In this document: positions 13,001 to 16,000 of the stretch, one piece after another | How positions within the stretch are numbered: position 1 is the first letter of the stretch | Layout of the letters: each line of letters opens with the position of its first letter | Source of the DNA: Leucoraja ocellata | Taxonomy: Eukaryota | NCBI GenBank assembly: GCA_036785375.1 | Contig: JAWMAR010000008.1 | Span: 6,758,001 to 6,822,000 of the forward strand | Reading direction: 5' to 3' | DNA length: 64,000 nucleotides | Notes under the pieces: model-generated | What the model was told of the DNA's origin: nothing | Databases searched by the model: none | Seen by the model: the letters and a program-made list of their open reading frames with translations, nothing else | Made by a program: the position numbers and the translations under genes

Positions 13001-16000
13001 TTCAATGTGGTCATGACTGTTCATCCACATTCAGTACCCCGTTCCTGCTTTTTCCCCCATATCCCCTGACTCCGCTATATTTAAGAGCCCTATCTAGCTC
13101 TCTCTTAAAAGTATCCAGAGATCCGGTCTTTACTGCCCTCCGAGGCAGAGAATTCCACAGACTCACAACTCTGTGTGAAAAAGAGTTTCCTCATCTCTAA
13201 TCTAAATGGCCTACCCCTTTTCTTAAAATGTGGCCCCTGGTTCTGGACTCCCCAACATCTTACACAACTGCAACGTCTATTATCTTATTATCTATTAACA
13301 TGACCTCCCAACTTCTATACTCAATACTCTGACTGATGAAGGCCATTGTGCCAAAAGTATTTTTGGCTACCTTATCTACCTGTGACTCGACCTTCAAGGA
13401 ATCTTGCACCTGCACTTCTAGATCGCTCTGCAATACTTCCCAGAGGCCTACCGTTTACTGTGTCGGTCCTGCCCTTGTTAGACATCCCAAAATGCAACAC
13501 CTCACACTTCTCTGTATTCAATTCCATCAACCATTCCTCAGCCCACCTGGCCAATCGATCCACATCCTGCTGCAACCTTTCGCAATCATCTTCACTATCT
13601 GCACTATCATCAGTTTGTAAATTATTCCATAAAATCTGGTTAAGGGCCTCATCAGAGACTGGTAAATATAGTTAGGCAATCCAGCAGAGAAAATAGCAGG
13701 GGCAAGTTAGGAAGCAAATATCTGAGGAATTGATCGAGTTCCTGCTATTTCCAGTTCTACACAATTGAATTCTGCAGTCAGACAAGTGGTTGTGATACTA
13801 ACTTGGCTGGAAGTCAAAGCAATAGCAAAGGGATACCGAATTACCTTGACAAATGGTGTTAATGGGTACAGTCATAAGAAATGTAATTCACACCAACATA
13901 CCGAAACATGTAGGGTGTAACACACTGGAGGAAGGAACATGGGTTCCTCTGGTCCACGGATCCCCTACTCTGGGCAAATGCAGCTGCTCTAGTCAACAGG
14001 AAAACATGCCCTTCGGCACACCGCATCCATACAATAGTAAATTCCAGCCAGGGACCCACACCATATTCTCAGGCAAAGTCACATGCACTTTTCCCATTCT
14101 AGTGTACTGCATTTGATGTTCGCAATGTGGTAAACGGGAAGAGATTTAACTTTTTTTCGCCTTCCATCACAGTGAGAAATCTGTGATGGATGTTTATGTT
14201 AAAATGTATTTTGTGTGTTCTGGTGCTTTTTATTTGTATGACTGACTTGGCAAATTCCTCGTAATGTTGCAAAACATATTTGGCTAATAAAGTAGTATTG
14301 CATTGTATTGTCTCCACTACATTGGAGAAGCAATACACAGACTGCAACGCACCTGTGTCCAGCCCACAGGAGTGGTCCTGAGCTTCCGGTTGCCTGCTGC
14401 TTTAATTCTCCATCCAATGACAACAAAATACTATTGACTCTTGAACTCTTGCTCTGCACAGTTACAAGAAGGCCCAATGCTTGAGGAACAACACCTCATC
14501 TCGCATCTGGACACATTGTAAGCTTCAGAACTCAACATCAAATAATCCAAGTTGACATAACTCGCTCTTTCTTTGTGTCTGTATCAGAATTGGTCATTTC
14601 TGCCAATCGTCCATCTGTGATTCTGGCTCTGTTTCTTTCCCCTGTTCTCCATTAGTACAGGTTGACCTGCTGGCCACGTCCCTCGGCACTCCTACTAGCA
14701 ACTCACAACGCAGATAAAGAAGCATCATCTGCTTACAATTGTAACATGCGGTCTCACCCCATCAAGGATATTCATTTGTTCTGCCCATTCACTGCAACTA
14801 GGAACTAATTTGTTTCCTCGCATTCTCAAGTGGGAGAAAGAGTCTCAGACCTGAAACATGAACTAATCAACAGATACTGCCCGAGTGTTTACAGCATTTT
14901 AAATTTCATTTTATATTGTAAATATGAAAAATGGCGAGACTTTCACTAAACTTAACATAAAGTTACCAGAAAGCAGTAATCACCAAAACAGACTGAACAT
15001 GAAGCTCTAACATCAAGTTGGTAAATCCCAGGACCCTCATGTGGACTGCTTCTTCTTCTGGCGTATGGCGTGCACAGCCTAAAGTTGTCGGACAACTTGT
15101 TCTATTTGATCTTGTGCACGCCGGGCTGATTGCATTCGTTGAAACAGGGCGGACCACGTGAAGGTTGCAATCTTCCACCCCATGTGGACTGCAAGCCTTC
15201 AGCATCCCTATGGTTCAGGAACCAATGTGAACCAACCTTGACTTTGATAACCTCTTCTGAAATTATCTTGTGCCTGCTAATGAAGAAAAATATCAAACCT
15301 ACTCAGTTGCCTGCCCGAGGTAAAGGTAATCCTTGCGCTTGAAATAGTCAATGACATCCTCCATGTTGGTTTTCAGCAGATTCACTCTGACATAACGGGG
15401 CAGTCGGTAATCTGGAAAGAAAGGCAAAATCTTGGATATTATAGCAGCCCCTTATAACAATACTGAGAAAATGATGCAGTAGAAGCTTTGAGGGGGATGG
15501 AAATAGATTCTGGGGTGGGGGGGTGTCTACAAACTGCAGGTAAAAGAACGAGGTATCATGTGACTAATCCAGCCATCCGAAGCAAAGAAGAATCTACAAC
15601 CACTGGCAACTTTCCTCTTGAATTCACTGCCTTTAAACAGCAACATAGGTAATGCATCCAGTGTTTAACATAATTGCATTTGTTCTGAATGAGATGATTA
15701 GAGAATTATCAACATCCAACCAATTAAGTCTCAGATTTGATCCCTAACATTTACTGAGTTAGCCTTCCCCACATTGTCATATTAGAAAGACATTGAAGTA
15801 ATCAGCCAATATTCCTAGGTCTCATGTAATTCTCTTCATACATTGATTTGTGAATAGTAGGATCACACTCATACTGTGGTTACTGTAAGTACAGTAAGAC
15901 AGTTCACGTTTTTTGGACTCGGGACATGAAATCAGCATAACATAGATGGCAAAGCACTGTTTCTTGTCTGTCTATCATAGTCAACATTATAAATACTATG

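Follow-up and report, generated by a model that had tools for sequence, protein, structure and literature searches.

A predicted HDV-like ribozyme at the head of a retroposon copy from a Vingi-like LINE in an NSUN5 intron

NSUN5 and the insertion in its fourth intron

The window, which is the whole 64,000-nt stretch of DNA that was analysed, carries NSUN5 on its minus strand. The coding exons, read from translations (for exons 1-4 together with splice contexts), extend from ~19258 down to a last exon near 5270-5110 and are numbered as coding exons from the ATG near 19258. No spliced exon 4-5 read was found in the fraction sampled (1-6%) of three RNA runs. By Pfam, exon 5 is NSUN5_fdxn-like (E 1e-17) and exon 6 corresponds to Methyltr_RsmB-F. 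The exon 5 acceptor presents a pair of AGs, at 11351 and 11346, 5 nt apart, of which the first alone keeps the frame. Upstream, a GC-rich tandem repeat (19237-19572; 18/23-nt units) adjoins the start codon in frame.

Intron 4 contains copy B, a short LINE derivative headed by a predicted HDV-like ribozyme (Table 1). The fold is sense to NSUN5, both lying on the minus strand, and 121 nt separate the exon 4 donor from G1, with a U at position -1; the preliminary description, which had placed an intact sense ribozyme ~120 nt from this donor, is borne out in these respects. Copy A, the second sense copy in NSUN5, occupies intron 8, and its ribozyme is predicted to be dead because the 3' strands of P3 and P1 are replaced.

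Table 1 Positions of the insertion, its predicted ribozyme and the surrounding NSUN5 features in the window
Feature	Position	Strand	Basis or remark
NSUN5 exon 4, 109 nt	15303..15411	-	Translations, splice context; donor GTAGGT from 15302 (GT = 15302-15301)
NSUN5 intron 4, 3,951 nt	11352..15302	-	Acceptor AG ends at 11352; 3,829 nt from G1 to acceptor
Copy B, 132-nt non-autonomous, internally deleted LINE derivative with (GAA)n end	15050..15181	-	Anatomy and family comparison
Target-site duplication, head side	15182..15192	.	11 bp, or 12 with G1 included; site empty in organism E
Target-site duplication, tail side	15039..15049	.	Repeat of head-side copy
Segment common to copy B and the 5' end of full-length LINE copy L200	15101..15181	-	84% over 81 nt
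Segment common to copy B and the LINE 3' end (last codons, 3' UTR, GAA tail)	15050..15095	-	Sequence comparison
HDV-like ribozyme core, 54 nt (predicted)	15128..15181	-	Fold check, descriptor scan, weak Rfam match
P1	15181-15175/15152-15146	-	7 bp, G1-U wobble
P2	15172-15166/15134-15128	-	7 bp; J1/2 = 2 nt
P3	15165-15163/15155-15153	-	3 bp
L3, UUCACGU	15162-15156	-
P1.1 G	15145	-	One P1.1 pair, C22-G37
Predicted catalytic C (C44)	15138	-	J4/2 = CGAA
Predicted cleavage site U(-1)/G1	15181..15182	-	G1 = 15181, U(-1) = 15182; position of the template-switch 5' ends seen for the family
Intron flank -3..-20, weaker pairs to -26	15184..15201	-	Predicted to pair with ribozyme nt 4-23, blocking P1, P2, P3 and L3
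Copy A, second sense copy in NSUN5, intron 8	5763..5892	-	13-bp duplication; 3' strands of P3 and P1 replaced

The predicted fold and its LINE-derived family

The core of copy B is intact, with 18 of 18 pairs and U20, G25, C44, A46 and A47 present. P1, P2 and P3 form a nested double pseudoknot with a G1 pair, and both the L3 U...CG reverse wobble (U20, C24, G25) and the J4/2 C-R-R-A motif (C44-G-A-A) occur, as in the published descriptor for HDV-like L3 and J4/2 (PMC6326823). P4 is nearly absent, 6 nt standing in its place, and P1.1 consists of one pair, against two in HDV itself. L3, J4/2 and the one-pair P1.1 are presumably similar to those of the CPEB3 ribozyme. The descriptor scan of both strands of the 64-kb window returns the copy B ribozyme as its sole match, and 40 shuffled windows return 3 matches. 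Rfam gives 0 matches over the window at gathering score; the best weak match, to the HDV-F-prausnitzii model (14.4 bits, E 2.2), spans exactly 15128-15181. At E 10 the CPEB3 model does not match copy B, and neither tRNA, 7SL nor 5S is matched in 15000-15260. Single-strand folding of the 54-nt core yields no signal above shuffles (z 0.04), which is expected because the fold is a pseudoknot. Such a ribozyme would cleave itself just 5' of G1, with C44 as general acid and a 5'-OH product.

Minimal P4-less HDV-like ribozymes such as drz-Mtgn-1 and the theta ribozymes share the nested double pseudoknot, the lost or vestigial P4 and a length of ~54 nt. These are from gut phages and metagenomes, often beside tRNAs (PMC10879173), whereas the fold of copy B heads a eukaryotic retroposon. 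The family would give a natural P4-less HDV-like ribozyme in a vertebrate.

Elements of the family are ~130-140 nt long and have no ORF. Copy B shows the duplication, microsatellite tail and empty orthologous site of a bipartite LINE. Identity as a SINE was rejected, the head being a LINE 5' end and not small-RNA-derived. Exact matches in the genome number 5,221 for nt 1-30 of copy B, 3,320 for nt 10-41 and 3,319 for the tail 30-mer. On contig C1, 9 of 41 tail matches coincide with one of 52 head matches, from which capture-recapture gives ~15,000 or more copies, an estimate that takes in duplicated assembly regions and LINE ends. Among 84 distinct copies, the duplication measures 10-17 bp in 55 and 7 bp in 4, and is lacking in 10, while in 15 the tail was not located. 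The base before G1, read in 77 distinct copies (loci L001-L134), is T in 39, C in 14, G in 12 and A in 12. About 15 element copies at L031-L034 (G000:C1:19.26-19.43 Mb) lie within a tandem 2-kb unit arranged in two opposite-strand blocks; a ribozyme array on contig C1 was rejected, the cluster being a duplicated 2-kb unit that holds one element copy.

The 3' end of the parent LINE was reached from 2 of 30 tail-pattern loci, and its last ~45 nt are the element tail. Among 20 extended LINE copies one is full length (L200), with the same head followed by broken endonuclease- and RT-like frames, the first of which starts within about 110 nt of the 5' end. The LINE family has Pfam RVT_1 matches, the endonuclease Pfam match coming from the sister family alone, and a 353-aa frame that runs from the end of the RT through to the C-terminus gave no RNase H match. 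This layout agrees with the Vingi definition given in PMC13708176 (a compact single ORF with APE endonuclease and RT, without RNase H), and we call the partner Vingi-like, a label taken from architecture and not from an RT tree. Comparison with these copies identifies the element as the 5' and 3' ends of the Vingi-like LINE joined. Inverted head fragments occur in two more of the first 20 LINE copies and in one more of a further 20 regions; LINE copies with the ribozyme-bearing 5' end inverted relative to the body lie at L201:1935-1989, L212:1924-1978 and L234:3104-3156 and resemble twin-priming 5' inversions. An RTE partner was also considered, DUF6451-bearing elements likewise ending in (GAA)n, and was rejected at 30 loci without real similarity to the element. 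Loci L035-L064 hold an RTE-like family (DUF6451) of the same genome, with a (GAA)n end and a 3' end unrelated to the element.

A second Vingi-like LINE family of the same genome (~47% protein identity to the first; 38 head matches) has a different 5' sequence and the same fold, with a P4 of 7 bp and an A-C mismatch in P1. Across 17 comparable pairs of these two families, paired by hand, both partners differ in 8, a single partner in 1 and neither in 7, and 1 pair is broken; the compensatory changes support a kept fold. Covariation within the family of copy B is no structural test because its copies differ mainly by CpG decay. The second family (L220:3830 downwards, minus; L238:1502-1576) is younger, with copies 95-98% alike, frames of up to 559 aa and a TAAA tail, and it has short, internally deleted derivatives (L239/L240).

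Bipartite non-autonomous LINEs (RIME, NARTc, SIDER, R2 SIDEs and Vingi and RTE derivatives; PMC5786205, PMC4035085, PMC4494074) likewise consist of LINE 5' and 3' ends only, are flanked by duplications and begin with an HDV-like ribozyme. They are cut immediately ahead of +1, with known modulation by the upstream flank, and the same is predicted for copy B. The family of copy B differs in being from a vertebrate, very short and present in more than 5,000 copies, with a Vingi-like partner. Vingi is not among the six ribozyme-bearing clades listed in PMC5786205, and literature searches brought up no publication about ribozymes of Vingi elements or about this element family, which may already be named in Repbase or Dfam. 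With this family, the LINEs that have 5' ribozymes would come to include Vingi-like ones; gene-writing platforms make use of this clade (PMC13708176).

RNA ends at G1 and the predicted flank hairpin

RNA was sampled at 1-6% of three raw runs, two of them single-cell (X23 and X24; organism B, one study, two samples) and one poly(A) (X22; organism D). In the single-cell runs, 1,520 and 1,249 reads, of the ~2,170 and ~2,010 covering 15174, leave the window behind 15181. Loose ends at 15181 relative to 15182 stand at 1520:275 and 1249:342 in these runs, as against about 1:1 in five DNA-type runs. Most of the reads ending at G1 continue into a template-switch oligo (consensus agreement 0.81 and 0.77). 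The consensus beyond G1 starts CCCATTCACTCTGCG, recognisable as a SMART-type template-switch oligo in reverse complement. All four element G's are present and are followed by three G's of the oligo, with no extra G beyond G1, a count that a capped start at G2 would equally give. At a template switch, the junction gains one extra base if the RNA is capped and none if it is uncapped, with a bias to uncapped G starts (PMC6885630). RNA of the element family with uncapped-looking ends at G1 is therefore present, copies being pooled. Such ends are what cleavage predicts and give it support at the level of the family, within one study and one organism, with all copies pooled and with a G-start bias of template switching that favours ends of this kind. 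Self-cleavage can also arise during extraction or RT, in library preparation, according to 10.1101/2024.07.19.604288.

The poly(A) run of organism D has no pile at G1, its ratio of 114:123 for 15181 against 15182 being a DNA-like read-through. Strand invasion was rejected as the source of the oligo ends: it predicts that loose ends would fall at 15180 or 15183 and does not account for three additional G's behind 15181, and ends at 15180 and 15183 are absent among the six best-supported loose ends of each single-cell run. At 15061, 255 and 219 reads of X23 and X24 carry a long poly-T just before the GAA tail, which may represent polyadenylated unit-length RNA or oligo-dT mispriming. In X22, antisense family reads over 15050-15181 exceed sense reads by ~1.4-2 to 1 if the library is dUTP-stranded, which could reflect loss of sense copies from mRNA.

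At the NSUN5 locus itself RNA depth is 0-3. Exon 4 has a depth of ~1 in the poly(A) run only, 15194-15297 has 0 in all three runs, and 14700-15037 has 1-3 in the single-cell runs only. The coverage step sought across the site accordingly has the right direction, reads lying only 3' of it, on few reads (1-3 against 0) and in an end-biased library. The 5' ends looked for at 15181 were obtained for the family, in the numbers given above, and at this depth the locus shows no pile of read beginnings or ends in the sampled runs.

The preliminary description had overlooked that the intron flank of copy B is complementary to ribozyme nt 4-23. The predicted hairpin, of ~19 bp, covers the 5' strands of P1, P2 and P3 together with L3. 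Its duplex is calculated at -23.3 kcal/mol, against a mean of -10.8. With flanks of 25 nt, 0 of 83 other copies pair as strongly, and with 20, 30 or 40 nt, 0-2 of 83, these lengths having been picked after the hairpin had been noticed; 4-9 of 1,998 random flanks are as strong. At a flank length of 15 nt copy B does not stand out, 10 of 76 copies pairing as strongly. The P1 probability of copy B is near 0 in the donor-to-ribozyme context; values as low occur in 26 of 76 other copies. The hairpin comes from a nearest-neighbour model, in which the pseudoknot is not scored, and the stacks of the native helices add up to ~-32 kcal/mol with loop costs left aside, so refolding out of the hairpin is possible. 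Since transcription reaches nt -20..+23, which make up both arms, ahead of the 3' strands of P1 and P2, the hairpin would be the first structure to form. Flank effects on HDV-like ribozymes of retroelements are documented (PMC4035085), and the flank hairpin is predicted to mute copy B. Flank pairing as an insertion mechanism was rejected, the flanks of the other copies being no better than random (-10.9 against -11.7 kcal/mol).

Age, probable neutrality and the role of copy B

In four organisms (A-D, one run each), contigs of unique flank run into the element at both sides, by 29-43 letters at the tail and 24-34 at the head. Under a 31-letter bridging rule, the tail junction is passed by organism C alone and the head junction by organism B alone, the rest agreeing over shorter lengths, and no contig crosses an empty site in any of the four. 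The insertion thus appears to be common to organisms A-D, of which A may be the species of the window. In organism E, ~6% diverged (35 other letters in ~580), a single contig spans the empty site with one copy of the duplication, and the element family is carried at other sites. The insertion is therefore lineage-restricted, and it is older than the split of organisms ~2-3% apart; its presence in relatives, raised in the preliminary description, appears to hold for four organisms and stops at the fifth. Deep conservation at the orthologous site, as for exaptation of the CPEB3 type, is absent, the site being empty at this distance. The flank at 15182-15241 has no listed difference in four DNA runs (flank only, the ribozyme letters of the orthologs being masked by reads from other copies); with ~31 variable sites per 1,057 nt locally, as counted by hand, 60 nt of flank would stay unchanged with a chance of ~0.17.

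Intact heads are frequent in the family: among 38 copies that were selected by their tail and possess a head, 10 pass the core test of copy B, 6 further loci being headless. In 29 ungapped copies, changes affect 27 of 986 non-CpG paired sites, 7 of 319 unpaired sites and 41 of 232 CpG sites; by these counts the sampled copies decay neutrally. Copy B has 2 changes from the sampled majority in 54 nt, the median being 3. If 200,000 donors are assumed, random insertion predicts 14-27 sense copies with an intact core at 121 nt or less from one of them, and the placement of copy B does not exceed what chance allows at this copy number. The assembly contains the diagnostic 32-mer of copy B a single time, and its closest relatives are 95% identical, so no daughter copies are visible; the release of a retroposition-competent RNA from this copy, proposed in the preliminary description, is not borne out. 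The tuning of NSUN5 by cleavage, proposed alongside it, is without direct support, copy B being one of thousands of copies, of which those sampled decay neutrally, its flank predicted to block the fold and the locus covered at the low depth described.

Building on the directly observed anatomy, LINE origin, copy number, empty site in a relative and family 5' ends at G1, we regard it as reasonably probable that copy B is one retroposon head among thousands made from Vingi-like LINE ends, that the family ribozyme likely cuts the element 5' end out of host read-through transcripts, and that the NSUN5 copy is likely a neutral passenger that its flank hairpin is predicted to mute. Host transcription would read through the element, and the ribozyme would cut before G1 and free its 5' end, a role described for such ribozymes in PMC6765202. 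The LINE protein would then prime reverse transcription at the (GAA)n end, and insertion with a duplication would follow. In NSUN5, the hairpin would slow cleavage enough for exons 4 and 5 to be spliced, and the insertion may be tolerated for that reason. Both sense copies in NSUN5 (2 of 2) would then be disabled, which fits a survival filter with n = 2. Against a muted passenger stand the core, fully kept to judge from its letters although the insertion predates the split of the ~2-3% organisms, and the few single-cell reads of the locus, which lie 3' of the site.

These same points, together with the family ends at G1, are what one would expect if the ribozyme of copy B cuts to an appreciable extent in vivo but the cut neither has consequences nor is under selection, the 4-kb intron usually being spliced in time or splicing tolerating the cut. 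We consider this unlikely, the flank hairpin being the strongest of 84 copies and the acceptor lying just 3.8 kb away; a fast cut at 121 nt past the donor should moreover lower the mRNA yield, intronic scission and splicing being inversely related, as cited in PMC10274809. An internal promoter or another nuclease could also have generated the G1 ends, the fold being then a relic. The nearly absent P4, the single P1.1 pair and the weak Rfam score would agree with this, as would the capped start at G2 allowed by the G count and the poly-T ends at 15061, which suggest unit-length RNA; in L1Tc, moreover, the first 77 nt are both promoter and ribozyme (PMC3383444). Compensatory changes across the two families keep the fold, the RNA ends coincide with the predicted scissile bond without an extra G, and a canonical Pol III B box was not found by eye. 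On balance a promoter or nuclease origin is improbable.

The CPEB3 ribozyme, as presented in PMC10274809, resembles copy B in being HDV-like, sense and intronic. It is single-copy and conserved in mammals, lies 9,931 nt before the next exon, has a half-life of 2-3 min and has shown effects, whereas copy B is a recent repeat copy, 3.8 kb before its acceptor and probably neutral. Co-option of copy B as a CPEB3-like tuner of NSUN5, with the flank hairpin perhaps a switch, would accord with this precedent, with the intact core common to related organisms and with the unchanged flank, and it is more improbable still, since the insertion is absent at 6% divergence while the CPEB3 ribozyme is conserved across mammals, the invariant flank has an appreciable chance of arising by itself, and many such placements are expected at random.

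Beyond the muted passenger that we prefer for NSUN5, a wider proposal is tentative and rather to be doubted than assumed: that in a vertebrate genome a 130-nt retroposon derived from Vingi supplies active minimal HDV-like ribozymes by the thousand, which cut host transcripts in vivo, with sense intronic copies persisting mainly where mutation or chance flank pairing silences them. If this were true, copy B would have survived through silencing by its flank, with a hairpin that could later turn into a regulatory switch, and would be a living model of how a CPEB3-like intronic ribozyme originates. The question raised is whether exaptation of the CPEB3 type starts from muted transposon copies. 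The NSUN5 locus by itself probably does not matter, but the family does; its thousands of natural insertions with varied flanks, orientations and mutations make the tolerance of genes for intronic self-cleaving RNA testable. Elsewhere in the window, 61134-62747 is an inverted repeat with 223-nt arms, 95% complementary and 1,168 nt apart, possibly a DNA transposon.
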